In this document: positions 2,885 through 18,580 of the stretch, piece after piece | Layout of the letters: the number at the start of each line of letters is the position of its first letter | Position numbering within the stretch: position 1 is the stretch's first letter | NCBI GenBank assembly: GCA_963792965.1 | Contig: CAWBYW010000002.1 | Location: 1 to 19,398 of the forward strand | DNA: 19,398 nucleotides | Direction of reading: 5' to 3' | Source: an uncultured delta proteobacterium | GTDB taxonomy: Bacteria; Desulfobacterota; Zymogenia; Zymogenales; Zymogenaceae | Program-made: the position numbers and the translations under genes | Notes under the pieces: generated by a model | What the model was told of the DNA's origin: nothing | The model's input: the letters and a program-made list of their open reading frames with translations, nothing else | Databases searched by the model: none

Positions 2885-3923
2885 TCAAAGTATCAACATG
2901 GCGTCGCCATAGCTGTAGAACCGATAGCGTTCTATAACGGCTTGCCGGTATGCCGAGAGGATGAAGTCGCGTCCCGCAAAGGCCGAGACAAGGAGCAACA
3001 ACGTCGATCTCGGCAGGTGAAAATTCGTGATGAGACCATCCACCACGCGAAACGTAAAACCCGGCACGATGAAAAGCGACGTTGTCCCTGTCCCCGGCGT
3101 CACGCGGCCGGTATCGTCGGCCGCGCTCTCGAGGGCTCTCGTCGTGGTCGTCCCCACGGCAATGACCCGGTCTCCCTTCGCGCGTGCCCCGTTGACTGCC
3201 GCGGCCGCCTGTTTGCCGATGCGGTAGCGCTCGCCATGCATAACGTGCCCCGCGATATTCTCACTCTTTATCGGCAGAAACGTCCCCGGGCCCACGTGGA
3301 GGGTGAATCTTCACGAAACGCCCCCCCCGGCCCTCAACGGTCCGGATCATCTCGTCGGTGAAATGGAGGCCCGCCGTCGGCGCGGCGACCGACCCGGGGG
3401 GATCGGCATAGACCGTCTGATACCGGAGCCGGTCCTCCCGAGGATCCGTGTCCGCCTTCCGCTTGATATAAGGCGGGAGCGGGGGCTTTCCCCATTTCTC
3501 CAGATAGTCAAAGAGCCCTTCCGGGAAGCTGGCCTCAAGGGACCAGGTCTTTTTCCGGCGTCCCGTCAGCTCGGCCAGAACGCCCCCCGGGAGGATGAGC
3601 CGGGTGCCGGGTGCGATCCGCCGCCCCGGGAGGAGGCACGTGCCCCCGTTTTCGGTTTCCTCAAGGAAGAGGATCGAGATCCTCCCTCCCGTCTCTTTCT
3701 GCGCGTCAACGCGGGCCGGGATTACCCGGCTGTCGTTGACGATCATGGCATCTCCCGGACGAATGAACCGACCGAGGTCGGCAAACCGGGAGTGCTCGAT
3801 CGTTCGGCCCGTCCTTGAGAGGACCATTAGACGGCTGTCCTCGCGTCGGGTGGGCGGGTGCTGAGCGATCAGTCCCTCGGGGAGGTCATAGTCGAAGTCG
3901 GAGAGGTTCACGGCATAAGGCAT
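2885..3923 (-). CDS. queA: S-adenosylmethionine:tRNA ribosyltransferase-isomerase QueA (indel near 3305; start may be GTG at 3911)
   Basis: [44 protein letters not shown], then after the shift [22 protein letters not shown] and [10 protein letters not shown]. Confidence 0.96.
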
Positions 3924-4565: not shown

Positions 4566-6285
4566 TTACTTCATCTTAGAGGTCTTTCCTTTCTTCAGCA
4601 TGGCCATCGCGAGAGACGCGGGTCCCACAATCTGGGGATCTGTCAGGACGTTGATACAGGTGGTCTTCTCTGAGCTGAACGCTTCTACCAGGGCGGGCCT
4701 GATTTCGTCCAATTTAGTGACCAGGATCCCCTTCCCCCCGAGGGCCTGTACCGCCTCATGATACGGAACGTACCCTATCTCAACCGTTCCGCGTACAAGC
4801 TTCTTGAAATCCATCTTCATGGCGTTGGACGTCATGCCCCAATTCGCGTTATTGTCGATCACCACGACGATAGGAAGTCCTCTCCTGATCGATGTCTCAA
4901 TCTCCATGAAATTAAAGCCGACCGACCCATCCCCCGTATAGACGAGCACCCGCCGGGCGGGGTTAACGAGCTTGGCCGCGTTTCCGTAGGGGAATCCCAC
5001 CCCGAGACACCCGAAGAGTCCCGCATCCATCATATTCAGCTCGGCCCGGCATGTCCTGGTCGTTAACATCCAGGACACCGTGTCGCCGCCGTCCAAGACG
5101 ATGATGTCATTTATCCTGTCCATGAACTCGTTGACCTCTCGCGCGAGCCTGCCGGGATGAATCGTCGCCGACTCCTTATCTATTTGCTGTCGCGACGATA
5201 GTTTTGCCGCTTTCTCATTTTCTCTCAGGGCGTCCACCCAACCCGTAAACTGCGAGCCGGGGCTTGGTGCCCGGGCCTCTTTCTCGATGATCCGGTTGCA
5301 CTGCTTGCAGAAGGGCTTTGACGTCGGCAAAGACCGCATGATCGATGGCCCGGTTGCGGCCCATTTCTTCAGGCTCAATGTCTACCTGTATCAGCTTCGC
5401 GTCTGTGCGGAAATAATCGCCAAAGACGGAATAGAGGCCGATACGAGTTCCCAAAAGAATCACGAGGTCGGCGCAGTTATCGCCATGCCCGCGCACCCCG
5501 GGGTGACGATGAGAGACGATCCGAAACAGAGGGGGTGGGTATCGGGGATTATCCCCCTGGCCATGTTCCCGGTGAAGACCGGGATCCCGGTCTTTACGAC
5601 GAACTCCGCCAGATCTGTTCCAGCGTCCGAGTAGTAGGCCCCGCTGCCCGCCATGATAATGGGTTTTTCGGAGGCCTTGATCATCTCGATCATTTTTCGT
5701 GCGTCGTCCGGATCAACGGGTCTGGACACGGCGCGCGTGCTGATCTTCTTTACCTTGCTCAGGTCTACGTCTGCCTCGAGGACGTCGAGCGGAAGCTCGA
5801 GGAACACCGGGACCGGATCGACCCTCGATTGCATATCGAAACGCCATGTCGATATACTCGGGGATCCTTTCCGCCTTACGACATACGAGGCTCTTTTTAA
5901 CGATGGACTCGATAATGGGCTCCTGCTTCATATCCTGAAGGCCCAGCTTCTCCGCGGCCCCGGCCTCATGGCCCCCCGCGATCAGGACGAGGGGAGTGTT
6001 TGACAGCCGCGCATTGACGATGGCCGAGATCGTGTTGGTGAATCCGGGGCCGACCGTGACCAGAACCACGCCCGGCTTTCGCGTCATCCTGCCGTAGGCC
6101 TCGGCCATGAAGGCCGCCGCCTGCTCGTGTCGTGTCGAGATGATCTCGATCGGCCCGCCTTCCACCGCGAACTGTATCGGTATGATGCTCTCGCCGGGGA
6201 GCGAAAAGATATACTCAACCCCGGCATCCAGCAGTGCCTCGCCGATGAGCCTCCACCCTTCCTGTACGTCAGCCTGTTTATTCAT
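4566..6285 (-). CDS. Thiamine-diphosphate-dependent enzyme (acetolactate synthase-like / 2-hydroxyacyl-CoA lyase-like); about 3 apparent indels
   Basis: Pieces 5713-6285, 5460-5834, 5215-5496 and 4566-5378 join into one protein. Motifs: TRHEQAAAFMAEAYGR, GPGFTN, GPVFLELPLD, DGGD, FGCLGVG and the ThDP motif GDGSVGF-x-NNANWG. Confidence 0.9.
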
Positions 6286-8339: not shown

Positions 8340-8453
8340 CGGTTTAGTTCCAAGCGCGTGTCGTCGGCAAAGGAGGGTAGGGGGATAAAAGGGGTTCTCG
8401 AATACGCATCTGAGGTGATACCCCTTTTGAGGCTTCCCGACTATGAGTCGAAT

Positions 8454-8490
8454 AAAAAAGGCGGCGGGCCAAAACCCGCCGCCTTTTCTT
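8454..8490. terminator. Bidirectional rho-independent terminator between convergent plsC and thiolase
   Basis: AAAAAAGGCGGCGGG-CCAAAA-CCCGCCGCCTTTTCTT: GC-rich stem with a T tract on each strand. Confidence 0.9.
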
Positions 8491-8506: not shown

Positions 8507-9697
8507 CTACGATACTCTTTCCACAATCAGCGCCGTTCCCTGGCCGCCGCCGATACACAGCGTCGCCAGCCCGTATTTTGAATTCCGCTTCTTCATCTCA
8601 AACAGCAGCGTCGTGAAAATCCGCGCGCCGGAGCCGCCGATCGGGTGGCCGATGGCGATGGCCCCGCCGTTTACGTTGACCCTATCCATGACGCTTTCAA
8701 GCCCGAGCTCCTTGATCACCGCCAGCGACTGGGCGGCGAAGGCCTCGTTGGCCTCGACCAGGTCCATGTCCGTGATCTTGAGCCCCGCTTTGGCCAGCGC
8801 CTTTCTCGTCGCCGGGATGGGGCCCGTCCCCATGATCGCCGGGTCCACGCCCGCCGACGCGTAGGAGACGACCCTGGCCATCGGTTTGAGTCCCATCGCC
8901 TTTGCCTTCTCGGCGCTCATGACGACCATCGCCGCCGCGCCGTCGTTAATCCCCGACGCGTTGCCGGCCGTTACCGTCCCGTCTTTCCTGAAGGCGGGCT
9001 TGAGCCCCGCCAACCCTTCGGCCGTGGAGCCGAGGCGCGGGAATTCGTCGGTGTCGAAGGCCTTGGGCTCGCCCCTCTTCTGGGGGATCATGACCGGGAT
9101 GATCTCGTCTTTGAACCGACCCTCCTTGATGGCCTTTTCGGCCCGCTTCTGGCTCTCCAGCCCGAACGCGTCCTGGTGCTGGCGGGTGAGCTTATACTTG
9201 TCGGCGACGTTCTCGGCCGTCACGCCCATATGATAGTCGTTGAAGATGTCCCACAGGCCGTCCTTGATCATGATATCGATGACCTTGGCGTCGCCCATTC
9301 GGTAGCCCCAGCGGGCGTCCATCAGCCCGAAGGGGGCGTCGCTCATGCACTCGGTGCCGCCGGCGATCACCACGTCAGAGTCGCCCGCCTTGATGATCTG
9401 GGCGGCCAGTGACACGGCCCTGAGCCCCGAGCCGCAGACCTTGTTTATCGTGAGGGCCGGCACCTCCTGAGGAATGCCGCTTTTCATGGCGACCTGACGC
9501 GCCACGTTCTGCCCGAGTCCCGCCTGAAGCACACAGCCGAGCACCACTTCCTCCACGTCCGACGGCTTGATGCCCGCGCGCTCCATCGCCGCCGTAACGA
9601 CGATCTGGCCGAGCTTAACCGCGCCAATCCCCTTCAGCGACCCCCCGAAGCTCCCGACCGGGGTACGCGCCGCCGATACAATTACCACATCTCTCAT
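8507..9697 (-). CDS. Acetyl-CoA C-acetyltransferase (canonical thiolase)
   Basis: All catalytic motifs are intact: NKVCGSG, NEAFA, GHPIG and CIGGG. Confidence 0.96.
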
Positions 9698-9755
9698 CAG
9701 TATCCTCCCTTATGAGTTATTAGCCTTCATGATTTCATTGAGTATAGTATGCCGG

Positions 9756-9784
9756 AGTATATCTTAATTGATCGATGAACTCAA
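9756..9784 (-). promoter_or_regulatory. Putative internal sigma70 promoter for the thiolase
   Basis: TTGAGT, 17-bp spacer, TATACT in the 220-bp gap. A GGGAGG RBS precedes the ATG. Confidence 0.55.
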
Positions 9785-9917
9785 GGATGTTTTGGCATCA
9801 CCACCCATGAGGACGCGCTGAAACTCTCTCTAAAGGCCGGGATTGGTCGTTATGAGGGAAAAGGTGGAGTGTTGCGCGGCCGGCGAAAATAACGATCGAC
9901 GACATGTTCCGGGCGCG

Positions 9918-10889
9918 TTATGAGCCGTGCGGCTTTTTGAAGACCTCGGACATGATCCGGTTGACCTCCGTGTAGGGGTCCGTCTTGCGCCCGGCCATCG
10001 CCTCGTAGAGCTGTGCCAGCCCCTCGTCACCCCCCCGTTCGTCCAGTACCCTTGAGAGGAGGCGGTCTTGCAGCAGCTCGAGGAACTCGTAGCGCGCCCG
10101 CTCGACCCGCTTTCGCGCGAGCCCCTTCCCACCCTCGGTGTATGCCCGGTGCGCGACGACGGCCGCCATCAGCTCTTCGATCCCTTCTCCGTAGAGGGCT
10201 TCCGTCTTGACGACCGGCGGCCGGAGCTCGCCCTCGGCGTAGCGCTTCATGTCGAGCATGGCCGCTATATCATGCACGGCGCGGTCTGCCCCTTCCCGGT
10301 TGGCCTTATTGACGACGAAGACGTCCCCAACCTCCAGCACCCCCGCCTTGATGGCCTGGATCTCGTCGCCCAGCCCGGGCGTGAGGACAACCACCGTCGT
10401 GTGCGCCGTGGAGACGATCTCCGTCTCGTCCTGTCCCACGCCCACCGTCTCTATGATGATGATGTCCTTTCCCATCGCGTCCATGACGTTGATGACGTCG
10501 TTGGTGCTGGCGGAGATGCCGCCCAGATGTCCGCGCGTGGCCATGGAGCGGATGAAGACGCCCCGGTCGGTGAAGTGACGAGACATGCGGATCCGGTCGC
10601 CGAGGATGGCGCCGCCCGAAAAGGGACTGGTGGGGTCAACCAAGATAAGGCCGACGGTGAGATCCCGCTTTCGGTACCACTCCACGATCCGGTCGACGAG
10701 CGTGGATTTGCCCGCACCGGGAAGGCCGGTGATTCCTAAGAGATAGGCCTTCCCGGTGCAGGGGTAGAGTTTTTTGAGCTGTTCTGCCGCGCCGGGCATC
10801 TCGTCGTCGATGTCGCGCATCAGCCGCGCTGCGGCCCGCACATCGCCCGCAAGCACCCGCTCGGCAAGTGACGTCGTGTTATAAACCAA
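9918..10889 (-). CDS. meaB: Acyl-CoA mutase-associated G3E GTPase chaperone MeaB (start uncertain, probably TTG at 10889)
   Basis: GITGLPGAGKST, VDPTSPFSGGAILGDRIRM, ETVGVGQ, GDEIQAIKAG and VVNKA. Confidence 0.94.
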   Translation of the reverse strand: MVYNTTSLAERVLAGDVRAAARLMRDIDDEMPGAAEQLKKLYPCTGKAYLLGITGLPGAGKSTLVDRIVEWYRKRDLTVGLILVDPTSPFSGGAILGDRIRMSRHFTDRGVFIRSMATRGHLGGISASTNDVINVMDAMGKDIIIIETVGVGQDETEIVSTAHTTVVVLTPGLGDEIQAIKAGVLEVGDVFVVNKANREGADRAVHDIAAMLDMKRYAEGELRPPVVKTEALYGEGIEELMAAVVAHRAYTEGGKGLARKRVERARYEFLELLQDRLLSRVLDERGGDEGLAQLYEAMAGRKTDPYTEVNRIMSEVFKKPHGS

Positions 10890-12030
10890 GGTACCTCGAA
10901 ATAACGATGCGCTGCACTTCGCTGGTTCCTTCGCCGATCTCAAGGAGCTTCTGATCGCGGTAGAACCGCTCCACCGGATACTCCTTCATGAGCCCGTATC
11001 CGCCGTGAAGCTGTACCGCCTGATTGACAACCCGGCTCATCACCTCGCTGCAATAGAGCTTGGCCATCGCCGCCACTTCCCCGAAGGGCCGCTTGTTTTC
11101 TCTCAGCCAGCAGGCTTTGTAGAGCATGTTCCGGGCGGCCTCGATCTCCATGGCCATGTCGGCCAGCTTGAAGGCGTTGACCTGGAACTTCCCGATGGGC
11201 TTGCCGAACTGCTCACGCTCTTTTGCGTACTTGAGCGCCTCCTCGAAGGCGCCCTGTGCGCCTCCCAGGCCCATCGCCGCGATGGAGAGCCTGCCGCCAT
11301 CAAGCGTCTGGAGCATCTGGTGGAATCCTTCGCCCCGCTTGCCCAACAGGTTCTCCTCGGGAACCTTTACGTCGTCGAAATAGAGCTCGCCGGTGTCTGA
11401 GGCCCGCCACATCATCTTCTTCTTCATCGCCACCTTTTTGAACCCGGGGGTATCCGAAGGTACGAGGATGCAGGAAATCTCCTTCCTCCCATCGGGACGC
11501 GTCCCCGTCGCCGACTGGACGACGCAGATGCCCGCCATTTCGGACGTGGAGTTGGTGATGAAGATCTTCGAACCGTTGATGACCCAGTGGCCGTCCTTGA
11601 GGACGGCCGCTGTTTTGCTTGAGCCGGCGTCCGACCCCGCGTTGGGCTCGGTCAGGCCGAAGGAGGCAAGGATCTCGCCGGAGCAGAGCCTCGGAAGCCA
11701 GATTTCCTTCTGTTTCTTGCTGCCGAAGTAGTTGATGGGCCCGATGCCCAGCGAATTTGCCGCCGCCACCGTTGCCGCCTGTGAGCCGTCCACCCGGGCG
11801 ATCTCTTCCACCGCGATGATGTAGGAGATGTAGCCGACATTGGAGCCGCCGTACTCTTCGGACACGAACATGCCGAAGAGCCCCAGCTCGCCCATCTGTT
11901 TGGTGATGTCCGTGGAGAAGACGGCCTTTTCGTCCAGCTCCTCGGCCTTGGGTTTGATGACCTTTTCGGCGAAGTCACGGACGGTCTTTCGGAGTATATT
12001 CTGTTCTTCGGTAAGGTCGTAGTTCAACAT
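10879..12030 (-). CDS. Acyl-CoA dehydrogenase (short/branched-chain type)
   Basis: FGLTEPNAGSD, INGSKIFITN, QLHGGYG and EIGEGTSE (catalytic Glu position). ATG at 12030 follows a GAGGT RBS. Confidence 0.95.
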   Translation of the reverse strand: MLNYDLTEEQNILRKTVRDFAEKVIKPKAEELDEKAVFSTDITKQMGELGLFGMFVSEEYGGSNVGYISYIIAVEEIARVDGSQAATVAAANSLGIGPINYFGSKKQKEIWLPRLCSGEILASFGLTEPNAGSDAGSSKTAAVLKDGHWVINGSKIFITNSTSEMAGICVVQSATGTRPDGRKEISCILVPSDTPGFKKVAMKKKMMWRASDTGELYFDDVKVPEENLLGKRGEGFHQMLQTLDGGRLSIAAMGLGGAQGAFEEALKYAKEREQFGKPIGKFQVNAFKLADMAMEIEAARNMLYKACWLRENKRPFGEVAAMAKLYCSEVMSRVVNQAVQLHGGYGLMKEYPVERFYRDQKLLEIGEGTSEVQRIVISRYLGL

Positions 12031-12058
12031 ATACCTCTTCTTTGTCCTGCCGCTTGGG

Positions 12059-12690
12059 TTAGGCCGGCTCAAACCACATGAGAAGCATCGGGTGCCCCAC
12101 CGGCTCCTTGGTGTAGGCAACCTTGACCGGCATCCCTGATCTTGATCTTCGTCCGGTCGGTTCCCCAGTTCCTCAGCTGATGGGTGAACAGAGAGTCGGC
12201 CCCGTCAAGCTTGACCATCGCCAGCACGTAGGGCATCTCCACCTTCATGAAGGCCGGGACGAACTCGCGAGATCGAAAAGCTCATCAAGCGTCCCGTGCC
12301 GGGCAGCTCCTTCCACTTAGTGATGGCCAGGCAATCGGGGCAGACCGGCCGCGGGATCGCCCAGACGTAGCCGCACTTGGGGCATTCGGTGGCGAAGAAC
12401 TTCTTGTTCTCCAGCTCGATGAAGAACTTGGAGTATTTGCCAAGCGAGTGGCGGTAGGTGAGTTCCATCTTCCACTCGATGCGCATGATCTCGCGGAAAT
12501 CCTTCCACGGGTCCTGGTCCGCCCGATGGATGGGGTCAAAGGCGAGCTTCGGTCCGATGGGATCGTCGGCCTTGAATACCTGTAGTTTCGTAGAGACGAG
12601 GCCCCGGGCTTTCCCCGGCGCCAGATCGGCTATCTTCGGGAGCTTGGGGTATAACGTCTTCTGGGGATCGTCGAAAACACTTTTAGCCAT
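12059..12690 (-). CDS. DUF35-type Zn-ribbon/OB-fold protein; 2 apparent indels (near 12267 and 12138)
   Basis: CPKCG..PRPVCPDC, LPGTGRLMSFS, then PYVLAMVKLDGAD and IGMPVKVAY..MWFEPA* in shifted frames. Preceded by an AAAGGAG RBS. Confidence 0.9.
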
Positions 12691-12708
12691 GGTCGTTTCT
12701 CCTTTCTG

Positions 12709-13921
12709 TTAGTCGACACGCCGGAAGATGTTGATGGCCACAAAGGTCCCGGTTCCGCCGTGGGAGTCCATGCCGCCCTGCCCGTTGATGATCTTGGCCT
12801 GGCGCTGGGGATGTGACCTCCTCGCGCAACTGCTTCATGACCTCGATGCCCTGGTTGACGCCGGTGGCGCCGACTGGGTGGCCCATGCCGATGAGGCCGC
12901 CGGAGGTGTTGATGGGGAGCTCGCCGCCGAGGTCGAAGTAGCCCTCCTCGTAGAGCTTGCCGCTGCGCCCCAGCCCGCAGAGGCCGAGGTCCTCGCAGCT
13001 GACCATCTCCACGCCGGAGTAGGCGTCGTGCACCTCGAAGCAGTCGAGCTCCTTGGCGGGGTTCTTGATGCCGGCCATCTTATAGGCCTGCTCGGAGGCG
13101 ACGCGTTTCGACCGGAAATGGGCGATGCCGGGATAGGGGTAGGGCCGATCGGCGATACGCATATAGTCGGTCCCGCATCCGGTTCCCACCACCTCGATGC
13201 GCGGCTTGCGGTACCACGAGGTCGAGTGGGCCTTTGCCCACTCTTCGGTGGCGAAGACCAGGCACGACGCACCGTCGGAAAGGAGGCAGTTATCCAACAC
13301 CTTATAGGGCGAGGTGATCAGCGGGGAGTTCATGACGTCCTCCACCGTGATCCTCATGGGGCTCTGGGCGTACTCATTGTAGATGGCGTTGCGGTGGTTC
13401 TTGACGGAGACCAGCGCGAACTGCTCTTCCTTGGTCCCGTACATGTCCATATGTGCCCGCATCATCATGGCGTAGTAGGCGATATAGAAGCCCGCCACCT
13501 GCACCTCCCAGTCCGTGTCGGAGGCCAGCGCGATGAACTGCTGGGCCACGTCGGACGGCACGTGCCGGCCCATGTTCTCGGTGCCGTACACGATCATGGA
13601 ATCGCAGAGGCCCGACTTGATGTAGGCATAGGCGTTCCTGATGGCCAGGCCGCCGGTGCCGCCGCCGCCCTCGACGCGAACGTTGGGCTTGGGGCACATG
13701 CCGACGCAGTCGTGGAAGATGGCGCCCTGCTTCAACTGCTTGTCGAAGTGGTCGGAGAAATACGAGGTCGTGGCATGCTCGATATCGGCGATCTCGACGC
13801 CGGCGTCACAGACCGCTTCCATTACCGCTTCTACGACCCAGTCGCGAATGTTGCCGTCCGGGCGCTCGGAGGCCATCTTGGAGATGCCGCCACCCAGGAC
13901 GAAGACCCTTCTGTCGCTCAT
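12709..13921 (-). CDS. Thiolase-fold (SCP-x-like) protein lacking the nucleophilic Cys; indel near 12810
   Basis: RVEGGGGTGG at the Cys loop, KNHRNA..N.YAQ, SDGA, EVHDAY and SGGLIGMGHPVGATG. The true C-terminus SHGGTGTFVAINIFRRVD* is in another frame. Confidence 0.9.
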
Positions 13922-14126
13922 AGAAATCCTCCTTATCTGTTTCCTGTCACAGTAACATTGCGCATCATAATAAATCCCGGCGCCTCTCGCCGAGCCGGAG
14001 CTCTACCGAAGGCGCCAGCCTGAAGACTTGTCATATCGCTTTCTGAAAGCCATACCACCCGAGCCGCCCGTGCGGGTCTTCTCGCTCGTGTCGAGACCAC
14101 CCACGAACGCCGCGTGCGCGGGGTGG

Positions 14127-14531
14127 CTACTTCGGCTTGATGTTGCCGTTGATCCAATTTACGATCCGCTCGGTGCTGTCCCCGGGCAGGAAGATCTCTC
14201 CCACCCCGGCCTCCTTGAGCTTCACGATGTCCTCCTCGGGGATGATACCGCCGCCGAAGACCGCGATGTCGCTTGCACCCTCCTCTTTGAGAAGATGAAT
14301 GATCTGCTTGAAGAGGTGGTTGTGCGCCCCGGAGAGAATGGAAAGCCCGATGCCGTCCACGTCCTCCTGGACGGCCGCCGCGACGATCATTTCGGGCGTT
14401 TGATGGAGCCCCGTGTATATCACCTCGATCCCCGCGTCGCGCAGGGCGCGAGCGACGACCTTGATGCCCCGGTCGTGGCCGTCGAGCCCCGGCTTTCCGA
14501 GAAGTATCCTGATTTTTCGTCCTTTGGTCAT
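14127..14531 (-). CDS. Cobalamin-binding small subunit of an acyl-CoA mutase (IcmB-like)
   Basis: [10 protein letters not shown] (DxHxxG), GLSILSGAH and GGGIIP; 134 aa. Confidence 0.95.
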
Positions 14532-14639
14532 GATATGGATCTCAATAGTTCGTGTTGGTTATAGGTCTTCGCGGCCCGCTAAAAGAGACCGTGCCGACGG
14601 GCCGAGCATACCTCACGTGACGCGCGACGCACGGGCGGC

Positions 14640-16315
<1,676 letters not shown>

Positions 16316-16398
16316 ATACCCCCCGTATATCTTTCAGGTTCTTATTAACTTTTCCAAACGCTCCCGGTGGTGAGACGAAAGAAGACATCTCCCCTCGT

Positions 16399-16944
16399 TT
16401 AGCGCTCAATTCCGAGCCGTGCTTGTGTACCGTTTGCATAAGGATGTTTTATTTCCACCATCTCGGTGACGAGGTCGGCGCGCTCAATGACCTCGGGCCT
16501 CGCGTACCTGCCGGTGAGTATGAGCTCGGTCTCGGAAGGCTTCGTATCGATCAGGGCAAGGACGTCGGCAAGCTTGATGAGCCTGAAATCCAGCGCCACG
16601 TTGATTTCGTCAAGTACGACGATGTCGTATTCCTTACCGGAGATGATCTTTTTGGCCAGCGCCAGCGCATCCTTGGCGAGCTTCACATCGATCGACTCGG
16701 GATTGTTCTTGTCCACGAAGTCGGGCCGCCCCATCTGGATGATCGTGAGGTAGGGGGCAAGGTACTTTGCCGCGCCGAGCTCGCCGTAGTAGATCTCGCC
16801 CTTCATGAACTGAATGACGCAGGTCTTCAGGCCGTGGCCCGCGGCTCTGAGCGCGAGCCCGAGGGCGGCCGTGGTCTTGCCCTTACCGTTTCCGGTGTAG
16901 ACCTGTACGAGGCCCTTTCGATCTTTTTTCGCGTCGTCTCCCAC
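16399..16944 (-). CDS. cobO: Cob(I)yrinic acid a,c-diamide adenosyltransferase (CobO/BtuR type)
   Basis: VYTGNGKGKTTAALG, QFMKG, VVLDEIN, LILTGR and ADLVTEM..IKHPY. Confidence 0.94.
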   Translation of the reverse strand: MGDDAKKDRKGLVQVYTGNGKGKTTAALGLALRAAGHGLKTCVIQFMKGEIYYGELGAAKYLAPYLTIIQMGRPDFVDKNNPESIDVKLAKDALALAKKIISGKEYDIVVLDEINVALDFRLIKLADVLALIDTKPSETELILTGRYARPEVIERADLVTEMVEIKHPYANGTQARLGIER

Positions 16945-16969
16945 GATATCAACCCGTCTCCCGTTACGT

Positions 16970-17026
16970 CCTGCAGGGGGCGCGTTATGTCGCGCCCGCG
17001 AGTGGTATACATGCCGCCCCTACAGG
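16970..17026. repeat. Degenerate GTAG-family REP doublet (REPIN-like)
   Basis: Outer arms CCTGCAGGGGGCG and CGCCCCTACAGG. Left unit has the hairpin GGGCGCG-TTATGT-CGCGCCC. Right unit reads GTAGGGGCGGCATGTATACCACTC on the minus strand. Confidence 0.55.
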
Positions 17027-17041
17027 TTTAACCCCGTGGAC

Positions 17042-17051
17042 ATTACGTAAT
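17042..17051. promoter_or_regulatory. Palindrome ATTACGTAAT, candidate operator upstream of cobO
   Basis: Shares the TTACGTAA core with the site upstream of the MerR gene. Confidence 0.45.
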
Positions 17052-17065
17052 ACGATGAGCTTATC

Positions 17066-17528
17066 TCACTCCCGCTCCTTTTTGAGCTTATCGCGCATCC
17101 GTTTCTGGAACTCCTCGATCTCGACCCTGAGGAGCCTGAGCTCGTCTATACGGTGGTCTATCTGGCGCCGGTGATTGTCGAAAAGTTCGATGATCCGTGG
17201 GAAGACTTTGGAGTTCTTGCGGTGCGTCTCGTAGATGGCGTTGAGCTCCTGCATCTCGGCAAGGGTCAGGCCGAGGATCTTGAGCTTCTGGATGAACCGG
17301 ATGCGCCTTAGATCGTTTTCGGTGAAGACGCGCTTGCCTCCCTCCGTCCTCCTGATCGAGTCAAGCAGGCCGATCTCCTCGTAGTAGCGGATGGTGCGCG
17401 GCGAGACGTCGAGCTTCTTCCGAGAGCTCGCTGATGTTCATGTGGAGCAGCGTCGCCGGGGAAGCCGGCCGCGTCAGATTCTTGCCGCCGTTTCCGAGGG
17501 AATTTGCATTGTTCTTCTTGACGGCCAT
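17066..17528 (-). CDS. MerR-family transcriptional regulator (LiuR-like); indel near 17421
   Basis: Manual translation gives MNISELS-KKLDVSPRTIRYYEEIGLL..RTEGGKRVFTENDLRRIRFIQKLKILGLTLAEMQEL followed by a coiled coil. The ORF track shows only the C-terminal 62 aa. Confidence 0.9.
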
Positions 17529-17561
17529 GTCTCTCGTCTCACCCGTTATCTGGCGGTCTTG

Positions 17562-17626
17562 TCTGCCATGTTACGTAAACTGGCAGATCATGTCCCGTTT
17601 CTATCAAAGGCGGGGCGGCTTGTCAA
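17562..17626 (-). promoter_or_regulatory. Promoter plus palindromic operator of the regulator/mutase cluster
   Basis: TTGACA (17626-17621), 17-bp spacer, TG-n-TAGAAA, followed by the near-perfect palindrome TCTGCCA-TG-TTACGTAA-AC-TGGCAGA (17562-17587). Confidence 0.65.
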
Positions 17627-17755
17627 GAAAAATGTGAATGATTTGTCAGTCAATCATTGTTCTCGGTCATGTCCCTATTGCTGACGTGGTGGGGTCCAAT
17701 GCCTGAGATGCGGTGATCGAGGAGGAAGGCTCGCCGACGGGGATGCTCTGTTATG

Positions 17756-17788: not shown

Positions 17789-18490
17789 TTACGCCCATCC
17801 CTCCCGGGCGAGGGCGTCGTGGAGCTCGTCGGGGTGATGGCGGCAGCGATATTCGAGCTTGCTTGAATCGACATGGGCCCTCGAATAGGGCCACCCTTTG
17901 GCCATCTTGTTTCGCTCGTGCAGCTCGTGCAGGAGGACGAAGGGGCGCTCGGCCTCAACGAGGTCGTCGTCGATCCAGACCTCCCCCTTGGGGACGAACT
18001 CGTAGACGTGGTCGTGCCCCCCCTCGGTGTAGTCGATGTCAAAGACGCTGCGGACGAGCCTCCCGTTCACGATCCAGACCTCGACGCCGCTCTCCAGCCG
18101 CTTCCAGAGCCGCACGTGCACCTGTCGCGGGTCGGGGAGGTCGTCGCCGGTCAGGACGCGCTTCGCGTCGCTGGATTTGCGGCGCTCGGCCCGCTCGGCG
18201 AGGTCGGCGGCGTCGATCGCCTTGTCGTATGGGGTCCCGGCCGCCATGAGCCGGTGCTCTACGAGGAGGTGGTCGATGAAGAACCTGATCTCGCCCTGAT
18301 CGGCGTCCGGGGGGATTTGGTCGATCCAGAACTCATTTTGCGGGATGAAGGGGAAGCGGTAGTGCTGGCCGTAGTTGGTGAACTCCTCGTCGATGCGGCT
18401 GCGCACATATGCGCCATCGACCATAAAGATGCCGATATCGCCCCGCTCCTCGACCTTCTTCAGATATGGTGGCTTTAATTGCTCATCCAT
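17789..18490 (-). CDS. Hypothetical protein with a two-fold internal repeat and an HExxE...H putative metal site
   Basis: Intact ORF; likely ATG at 18490 (MDEQLKPPY) after a G-rich RBS. The two halves align by eye. Confidence 0.85.
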   Translation of the reverse strand: MDEQLKPPYLKKVEERGDIGIFMVDGAYVRSRIDEEFTNYGQHYRFPFIPQNEFWIDQIPPDADQGEIRFFIDHLLVEHRLMAAGTPYDKAIDAADLAERAERRKSSDAKRVLTGDDLPDPRQVHVRLWKRLESGVEVWIVNGRLVRSVFDIDYTEGGHDHVYEFVPKGEVWIDDDLVEAERPFVLLHELHERNKMAKGWPYSRAHVDSSKLEYRCRHHPDELHDALAREGWA

Positions 18491-18580
18491 AGGCTGCCCC
18501 CCACGATATGGGTTGGAGTCACTTACAGATTCGTGCGGATTTCCTCTCTCCTGAAGCAATCGACGATATGATCATTGACG

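Follow-up and report, generated by a model that had tools for sequence, protein, structure and literature searches.

Gene content of the cluster

The stretch of DNA analyzed here (the window) is an entire contig of 19,398 bp (CAWBYW010000002.1) from an uncultured delta proteobacterium of the family Zymogenaceae, with a genome bin of 3.36 Mb in 42 contigs that is 88.9% complete. It was found to carry nine genes in a single direction on the minus strand (8507–17528), in which a split acyl-coenzyme A (acyl-CoA) mutase is followed by a thiolase-like protein without catalytic cysteines (referred to here as thlLike), a DUF35 protein and an acyl-CoA dehydrogenase (ACAD). On the basis of open reading frame (ORF) analysis and of Pfam and NCBIfam searches, which back each name, the nine genes lie in the order claimed by an earlier sequence-only reading of this DNA. 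That reading had also treated the cluster as a coherent unit, and this is borne out by an order which is kept in genomes of the same family and in more distant ones.

The first gene encodes a MerR-family regulator (merR; 17066–17528, with a frameshift near 17420–17441), the intact orthologue of which in a related genome (L014:5714-6187) matched MerR-family models with scores below their cut-offs. It is followed by an ATP:corrinoid adenosyltransferase of the CobA/CobO/BtuR type (cobO; 16399–16944; PF02572, E 2.3e-62), whose orthologue passes TIGR00708 (191.6 bits against a cut-off of 167.75). The mutase large subunit (mutL; 14640–16315) is of the Phe/Gln (isobutyryl-CoA mutase) type and matches PF01642 in two pieces, and the small B12-binding subunit (mutS; 14127–14531; PF02310, E 4.8e-25) has its DxHxxG motif as DGHDRG. 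Next are thlLike, a cysteine-less thiolase-fold protein of the SCP2/archaeal type (12709–13921; PF22691, PF02803, and PF00108), and its DUF35 partner (12059–12690; zinc ribbon and OB fold), which has an N-terminal extension and two frame breaks.

The short-chain ACAD (10879–12030, starting MLNYDL) contains four ACAD Pfam domains and reached no NCBIfam equivalog, its catalytic Glu presumably being that of a GEGTSE motif; orthologues with 70–76% identity sit after Phe/Gln mutases in other families. The MeaB G-protein chaperone (meaB; 9918–10943; PF03308, E 9.6e-85), the true start of which is probably near 10889, has an orthologue passing TIGR00750 (319.5 bits against a cut-off of 240.75). The last gene (8507–9697) encodes a canonical acetyl-CoA acetyltransferase of the thiolase II type (Thiolase_N, E 1.5e-108; Thiolase_C, E 1.7e-51) and passes TIGR01930. 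No methylmalonyl-CoA epimerase, carboxylase or hydratase was found among the genes of the window, in agreement with the sequence-only reading. Homologues of crotonase, 3-hydroxyacyl-CoA dehydrogenase (HBD) and CoA transferase are located elsewhere in the genome, and its HMGL-like matches give no information on a leucine-type route.

Frame breaks in the assembly

Five frameshifts, on which the sequence-only reading is silent, were identified across four of the nine genes, namely merR (17420–17441), mutL (~15355), thlLike (~12814) and the DUF35 gene (~12250–12266 and 12141–12148). In mutL, frames -3 and -2 are joined at 15323–15374, with profile positions 2–285 and 288–512 of PF01642 split over the two pieces. 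Such a number of breaks within four genes could mean that the operon is a decaying pseudogene cluster in this organism and that the frameshifts are real. This explanation appears highly improbable: outside the breaks, the pieces are 74–94% identical to intact orthologues and contain no stops, deletions or other lesions, and unrelated housekeeping genes of the same window are likewise split (queA into two ORFs, 2888–3923, and a thiamine diphosphate (TPP) enzyme, 4569–6285, with its N and C domains in separate ORFs). Comparable breaks occur in relatives assembled into few contigs (L013 and L015), and in a contig assembled from a peat metagenome, belonging to a related organism, a single additional G stands directly behind 15355, exactly at the mutase break. 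Given the intact orthologues, the other split genes, the breaks in relatives and the extra G, the five frameshifts are most likely assembly errors, and the intact cluster of the relative G005 (locus L014) was therefore taken as the reference.

Indel errors seem to run through the entire contig, as genes outside the cluster are also split. A piece of SecD (12–545) is also among the window genes split by frame breaks. No RNA run was listed for the window, of which small shares were detected in five DNA runs from three studies; the four runs which were mapped gave short contigs of low depth, and the contig of the relative at 15355 is the only one to bridge a frameshift.

Acyl-CoA mutase

The intact orthologue of mutL is 567 aa long and consists of the catalytic domain without a fused B12 domain (TIGR00641, 815.8 bits against a cut-off of 303.8), the B12-binding part being a separate subunit. 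The window mutase has RQFAGF and KEYIAQK where human methylmalonyl-CoA mutase (MCM) has RQYAGF and KEFMVRN, and Phe and Gln occupy the positions of MCM Tyr89 and Arg207 in all of its orthologues. The assignment to the Phe/Gln type made in the sequence-only reading is thus confirmed by RQFAGF and YIAQK. No second acyl-CoA mutase was found in the genome, which is 88.9% complete.

Other assignments were considered and rejected. For an MCM, the carboxylate-binding Tyr/Arg pair is replaced by Phe/Gln and NF006944 gave 672 bits, below its cut-off of 876. The best PDB match of the mutase is HcmA (4r3u_A, E 8.5e-105); a 2-hydroxyisobutyryl-CoA mutase (HCM; HcmAB) was rejected on the motifs RQFAGF/SVAFHMPT in the window versus RQIAGF/STDFDMPT in HcmA. 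A decarboxylase role as in alkylsuccinate pathways was rejected as the main explanation because the mutase is without the carboxylate-binding Arg.

A His is present in the AFHMPT motif of the window mutase (residue 117 of L014; window ~15965), whereas MCM (AFDLAT) and HcmA (DFDMPT) have Asp; the same difference, His and not Asp in AF(D/H)MPT, separates it from isobutyryl-CoA mutase clusters. Among Phe/Gln mutases from genomes that are not independent of one another, His was observed in 24 of 25 with a thiolase-like/DUF35 module beside them, and those without a module had His in 18 cases and Asp in 15. Judged by its distribution, this His may mark a subtype of mutase. No residue rules for mutase specificity were found in PMC2847961, and a literature search for a pivalyl-CoA mutase gave no match.

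IcmA/IcmB of Streptomyces and Slip_0757-0760 of Syntrophothermus lipocalidus (mutase, CobO and MeaB) resemble the window in having split subunits, Phe/Gln and a dedicated CobO-type adenosyltransferase and MeaB, and the latter genes are assigned to isobutyrate-butyrate isomerisation (excerpt of PMC5017805). In contrast to Slip_0757-0760, the window has thlLike, DUF35 and ACAD genes between the small subunit and MeaB, which are not listed for S. lipocalidus in that excerpt.

Thiolase-like protein and DUF35 partner

The sequence-only reading described a “Cys-less” thiolase-fold protein, and its residues agree with this. In the nucleophile loop of thlLike (RVEGGGGTGG), Gly is aligned to the Cys of veaaCasG in 6esq and 7yvy and of RVEGACASGS in paralogues. 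The protein has HDAY in place of HDCF, the motif named for the acid/base Cys of thiolases (excerpt of PMC12329534), and further motifs are GHP and DSHGGT. As both catalytic cysteines are gone, thlLike is predicted not to be a thiolase and cannot, on these residues, carry out thiolysis. It keeps His298 and His348, together with a family-specific His387. The PDB matches were 7yvy (E 5.4e-66), 6esq (2.7e-53), BbsB 7pxp (8.7e-35), Ltp2 (7.1e-25) and 9myr_A (9e-21).

No NCBIfam equivalog was reached by thlLike or DUF35, and the protein atlas returned generic thiolase names only. More than 5,000 family proteins were counted at E ≤ 1e-20 among 8,000 candidates tested, a count which includes thiolase paralogues. 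The family extends over Bacteria and Archaea, with “acetyl-CoA acetyltransferase” as its annotation throughout, a name which, going by the residues, cannot be correct for the members examined. In the two most distant members of the window's family, thlLike is more strongly conserved than any other gene of the operon (88–89% identity compared with 75–77% for mutL), and it is under strong purifying selection.

The intact DUF35 orthologue exceeds the cut-offs of PF12172 (27.4 bits against 23.2) and PF01796 (43.0 bits against 27.1), whereas the broken copy in the window reaches only 21.2 bits. It is a separate protein of 209 aa with the Cys4 ribbon (CPKC...CPDC) present, and no MaoC domain was found in the window. 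A DPWxxFRE motif in its N-terminal extension is conserved over most of the wider family. It matches the DUF35 chains 6esq_E (E 2.5e-08) and 6ok1_B. From the likeness to solved complexes of DUF35 and thiolase-fold proteins, thlLike and DUF35 should form a complex. A complex prediction for thlLike, DUF35 and the mutase small subunit, run without controls, gave a score of 0.00, which carries no weight in either direction.

Fusions were searched for from both sides. Among 21 Pfam-scanned proteins from the best 150 of 6,483 DUF35-profile matches, none had a B12-binding domain; those scanned included double DUF35, acyl-CoA synthetase-DUF35 and thiolase-DUF35 proteins. PF01796 and PF12172 were likewise in none of the best 120 longer relatives of mutS that were listed, nor in 18 which were re-scanned. 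Two single-member fusions of a B12-binding small subunit with ACAD were observed (P0411 and P0447); these may be merged gene calls, as the ACAD part is truncated in both.

Many of the same 120 longer mutS relatives possess glyoxalase-fold domains (PF13669/PF00903), some of them named methylmalonyl-CoA epimerase. In the window it is the thlLike-DUF35 module which directly follows the small subunit, and the pair could accordingly be imagined as the counterpart of that epimerase: an epimerase/racemase or isomerase exchanging the alpha-proton and preparing a 2-methyl-branched acyl-CoA (e.g., 2-methylbutyryl-CoA) for the mutase or dehydrogenase. The thiolase fold is built for stabilising acyl-CoA enolates, which would suit such chemistry. 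However, the argument is one of position only, isobutyryl-CoA is achiral and needs no epimerase, and we know of no precedent for an epimerase with a thiolase fold. An epimerase role is thus considered very unlikely.

Comparison with known thiolase-fold systems

In the bile-acid aldolase Sal (CtSal), which depends on DUF35, the nucleophile position is occupied by Gly and the catalytic residues are Tyr302 and Cys304 of YDCY; Ltp2 uses Tyr294 of YDHF and Tyr344, and active sites in this group are heterogeneous (excerpt of PMC12329534). The steroid side-chain aldolase systems Ltp2-ChsH2(DUF35) and Sal-Shy(DUF35) (PDB 6ok1) share with the window a thiolase fold, Gly for Cys, a DUF35 partner and a neighbouring ACAD. 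They differ in that the window motif is HDAY rather than YDHF or YDCY (excerpt of PMC12329534), and in that its DUF35 is free-standing with the DPWxxFRE extension, while those of Ltp2 and Sal are fused to a MaoC hydratase. Sequence likeness to Ltp2 is also low (E 7.1e-25, compared with 5.4e-66 for the archaeal-type thiolase), and the window genes belong to a short-chain acyl-CoA context in anaerobes. Judged from these residues, thlLike shares the logic of the Sal/Ltp2 aldolases and fails their residue test.

The nearest solved sequences are those of the 6esq system (E 2.7e-53 between thlLike and 6esq_A, and 2.5e-08 between DUF35 and 6esq_E), and DUF35 is separate in both. In enzymes of the 6esq type, however, the nucleophilic Cys (veaaCasG) is present where the window has Gly, and the cluster is without a gene for 3-hydroxy-3-methylglutaryl-CoA (HMG-CoA) synthase. 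The benzoylsuccinyl-CoA thiolase BbsAB (7pxp) is similar in that an anaerobic catabolic operon encodes both DUF35 and a thiolase-fold subunit of the SCP2 type. BbsB was deposited as part of a thiolase, whereas the window protein is without the cysteines and reaches only 132.7 bits with the BbsB model (cut-off 750).

Conservation and recurrence of the linkage

The nine-gene order was found to be kept in six genomes of the same family, five of them with meaB. A thlLike homologue (E ≤ 1e-90) was present in 22 of 401 sampled genomes of the phylum and adjoins the mutase in 20; in the other two, both of family f43, the row consists of thlLike-DUF35-ACAD alone. Two more families (f29 and f51), with eleven genomes between them, keep cobO-mutL-mutS-thlLike-DUF35-ACAD-meaB with thlLike only 43–48% identical, in the row thiolase-HBD-crotonase-ACAD-ACAD-cobO-mutL-mutS-thlLike-DUF35-ACAD-meaB-CoA transferase A/B, and one f77 genome retains mutL-mutS and a thiolase-like gene on a rearranged stretch. 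The placement of the thlLike-DUF35-ACAD trio between the mutase and its own chaperone, to which the sequence-only reading drew attention, therefore holds in distant lineages. That reading held that a gene order not conserved in other genomes would speak against its proposal; the order is conserved, since the trio keeps its place between mutase and chaperone in these lineages.

In order to avoid selecting loci by the feature to be counted, a sample was chosen by the mutase alone (60 regions by rank and family in the mutase search, with 62 mutase copies). Of 42 Phe/Gln loci from 24 families, 9 (in 5 of the families) have a cysteine-less thiolase-like/DUF35 module immediately behind the small subunit; none of 20 Tyr/Arg loci (15 families) has one. 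The figure of 9 of 42 is a lower bound, as some Phe/Gln contigs end just after mutS.

The modules fall into four types, namely A (the window's family), B (f29, f51 and f77), B' (two f12 genomes) and C, in which two thiolase-like genes in tandem precede two DUF35 genes and which was observed in other families (L117:10554-13882 and L134:10849-14365; also L130, L149 and L158) with the motifs YDPF/GNP and DDSF/GNL. All 31 thiolase-like ORFs adjoining Phe/Gln mutases are without both cysteines. At the first position corresponding to YDHF/YDCY, types A, B and B' have His, and Tyr is found only in type C2 (YDPF). In a tree of 105 proteins, obtained by a quick maximum-likelihood method with a short search and no bootstraps and including kin that are not independent, at least three changes of the mutase-linked label are required; type A is nested among Actinomycetota/Bacillota, and type B lies beside Dehalococcoidia and Thermoplasmata.

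A family-alignment search of contigs from one genome per species gave 80 loci. DUF35 directly follows thlLike in 71 of these, and the contig ends there in the other nine. The nearest clade (72–82% identity; Actinomycetota, Bacillota and f43) usually has thlLike-DUF35-ACAD, and in a Syntrophothermus bin this trio lies inside a cluster of CoA transferase-EtfBA-FeS oxidoreductase-ACAD-thiolase. In each of five genomes in which the pair is unlinked, a Phe/Gln mutase is encoded at another place; this is weak evidence for a link because Phe/Gln mutases are common.

The context of a Chloroflexota clade (L047-L081) is quite different and carbohydrate-like, and its members also lost both histidines (YDSY, GRGAP). 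The thiolase-like gene and its DUF35 partner are there accompanied by Dak1/Dak2, DeoC/LacD aldolase, aldehyde dehydrogenase, family III CoA-transferase, nucleoside hydrolase-like genes and a sugar ABC transporter.

Proposed pathway and alternatives

The cluster is best explained as an operon for isobutyryl/butyryl-CoA isomerisation and β-oxidation with an uncharacterised non-thiolytic accessory enzyme, an assignment which on balance is probable. The frame of isobutyryl/butyryl-CoA plus β-oxidation is in itself quite probable, and a lyase activity of thlLike within it may be put forward tentatively, by analogy with the aldolases described above. The split adenosylcobalamin-dependent Phe/Gln mutase would interconvert isobutyryl-CoA and n-butyryl-CoA, with the flux possibly running in either direction, and may also act on other small non-carboxylated branched acyl-CoAs; it would be serviced by its own CobO adenosyltransferase and MeaB chaperone. 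The straight-chain product would be oxidised by the ACAD, crotonase and 3-hydroxyacyl-CoA dehydrogenase would be supplied from elsewhere in the genome, and the terminal thiolase would cleave acetoacetyl-CoA. Ordinary butyryl-CoA β-oxidation appears to be the simplest main route, because the operon ends in a canonical thiolase and its extended versions hold crotonase and HBD genes.

The thlLike-DUF35 complex would be an accessory enzyme of this pathway acting via an acyl-CoA enolate, possibly in retro-aldol cleavage of a 3-hydroxyacyl-CoA that is not handled by the dehydrogenase and thiolase. Retro-aldol cleavage is the first choice because of the Sal/Ltp2 precedent, the heterogeneous active sites of the aldolases and the YDPF motif of type C2.

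A number of observations weigh against this interpretation. Both the mutase substrate and the thlLike activity are read from sequence. The mutase is typed by general residue rules, namely that Phe/Gln at the MCM Tyr89/Arg207 positions is the isobutyryl-CoA mutase signature and that an HCM is marked by Ile90 and Asp117. The thiolase-like protein is far closer to archaeal thiolases than to Ltp2 or 9myr_A, and it has His rather than the catalytic Tyr at the first position of xDxx and Ala at the essential Cys of Sal. The module is absent from 33 of the 42 Phe/Gln loci, some of them on contigs ending just past mutS. In addition, 78 of the 80 family loci have no Phe/Gln mutase within 10 kb, both exceptions being from the window's family, and the Chloroflexota clade keeps its members with dihydroxyacetone kinase, DeoC aldolase and sugar-transport genes. 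Four genes are frame-broken here, and the operon could be dead in this organism. Finally, no former-active-site residue is common to all four module types.

This last observation appears to fit a scaffold as well as an enzyme. The pair could be a silent scaffold or acyl-CoA-binding adaptor joining the mutase, dehydrogenase or thiolase in a metabolon, what the four types share being the fold, the loss of cysteines and the DUF35 partner. Loss of both histidines in more distant members (ELYDSY/GRGAP and EVADTY/GQGAP) and the very high conservation of thlLike, which would fit many interfaces, are consistent with such a role, and in archaea DUF35 forms the bridge from thiolase to HMG-CoA synthase (excerpt of PMC12329534). 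However, the pair often occurs with no mutase nearby, types A and B retain His298, His348 and the family-specific His387, and no fusion of mutS with DUF35 was found in the 21 scanned proteins (from the best 150 DUF35-profile matches) or the best 120 longer mutS relatives. A scaffold is therefore regarded as unlikely.

As a special case of the lyase idea, the sequence-only reading gave a route from pivalyl- or isovaleryl-CoA to acetone. Here a pivalyl/isovaleryl-CoA mutase would be followed by ACAD forming 3-methylcrotonyl-CoA, a hydratase encoded elsewhere forming 3-hydroxyisovaleryl-CoA, and thlLike-DUF35 releasing acetone and acetyl-CoA, thereby avoiding carboxylation. The Cys-less thlLike with its DUF35 partner would suit the last step, a tertiary 3-hydroxyacyl-CoA being not oxidisable, as in the reasoning that applies to Ltp2 (excerpt of PMC12329534). 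IcmF, also a Phe/Gln mutase, is active in both the isobutyryl-CoA and the isovaleryl/pivalyl-CoA reactions (excerpt of PMC10481361), and the three ACADs of the extended operons suggest several substrates. Nevertheless, nothing points specifically to this route: the catalytic Glu of the ACAD is in its usual place (GEGTSE), no acetone-handling gene is present in the operon, and the canonical thiolase, together with HBD and crotonase in relatives, suits straight-chain β-oxidation. The ACAD is also, we assume, without the arrangement of an isovaleryl-CoA dehydrogenase. The acetone route is accordingly regarded as quite unlikely, and isobutyryl/butyryl-CoA isomerisation with β-oxidation remains the preferred reading.

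The frame of isobutyryl-CoA mutase, chaperones and β-oxidation is already known. Fermentation of amino acids yields isobutyrate and other branched acids, which in digesters as well as in methanogenic and sulfidogenic sediments act as bottleneck intermediates, and to our knowledge the only described isobutyrate route is a mutase with ordinary β-oxidation. No description of the inserted module was found in a search of the literature joining DUF35, thiolase and mutase, and no mention of DUF35 was found among the papers listed in that on syntrophic butyrate/isobutyrate and acyl-CoA dehydrogenase. A conserved extra enzyme between the mutase and its dehydrogenase, recruited several times, would mean either that the textbook isobutyrate route leaves something out or that these operons act on unassigned substrates.

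In a broader and rather doubtful proposal, the modules would be dedicated partners of an AFHMPT-marked subtype of Phe/Gln mutases, recruited by several lineages to the same slot and catalysing an undescribed step in anaerobic metabolism of branched short-chain fatty acids. This step would be either a thiolysis-independent cleavage of 3-hydroxyacyl-CoA, yielding an aldehyde or ketone and an acyl-CoA, or an alpha-epimerisation, and it may be coupled to the mutase or dehydrogenase. If true, such a new lyase, with a thiolase fold and small acyl-CoAs as substrates, would be of interest for engineering ketone, aldehyde and branched-chain products.

Transcription signals and other features of the contig

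The cluster was said to be bounded by a terminator, and an intrinsic terminator hairpin with a U-run is present on the minus strand at 8450–8489, ~18 nt past the thiolase stop (-30.1 kcal/mol; z = -5.72, with none of 200 shuffles folding equally well). It is absent from the list of terminators obtained by pattern scan. For the promoter/operator claimed at the other end, elements upstream of merR (17556–17630, minus strand) are legible by eye, comprising TTGACA, a dyad TCTGCCA-N12-TGGCAGA and TTACGTAA palindromes. This promoter/operator is putative, as a consensus promoter scan lists nothing upstream of merR. All Rfam families stayed below their gathering scores across the window, and therefore no cobalamin riboswitch was found.

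Within the cluster, a promoter-like site (9756–9784, minus strand) was observed in the 220-bp gap ahead of the canonical thiolase gene, and a weak terminator-like site (13976–13994, minus strand) in the 206-bp gap between the mutase small subunit and thlLike. The nine genes may not be one transcript.

Upstream of merR lies an ORF of 256 aa (17789–18559, minus strand) without a Pfam or NCBIfam match, for which the fetched loci of relatives gave no counterpart. The thiamine diphosphate enzyme at 4569–6285 (minus strand) belongs to the group of acetolactate synthase, 2-hydroxyacyl-CoA lyase and oxalyl-CoA decarboxylase and is located ~2 kb past the operon, after an AlaX-like gene. Its neighbourhood was not seen in the fetched parts of G005, G007 and G002, and it recurs in the relative G009 (L015).

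The genome of the window also has further DUF35-thl-thl-DUF35 modules without a nearby mutase (C7:615343-618752, C13:195180-198434, C14 and C15). Three contigs carry apparent copies of one such module, those on C14 and C15 having the same coordinates with an offset of 2 bases, and these copies are possibly an assembly duplication.

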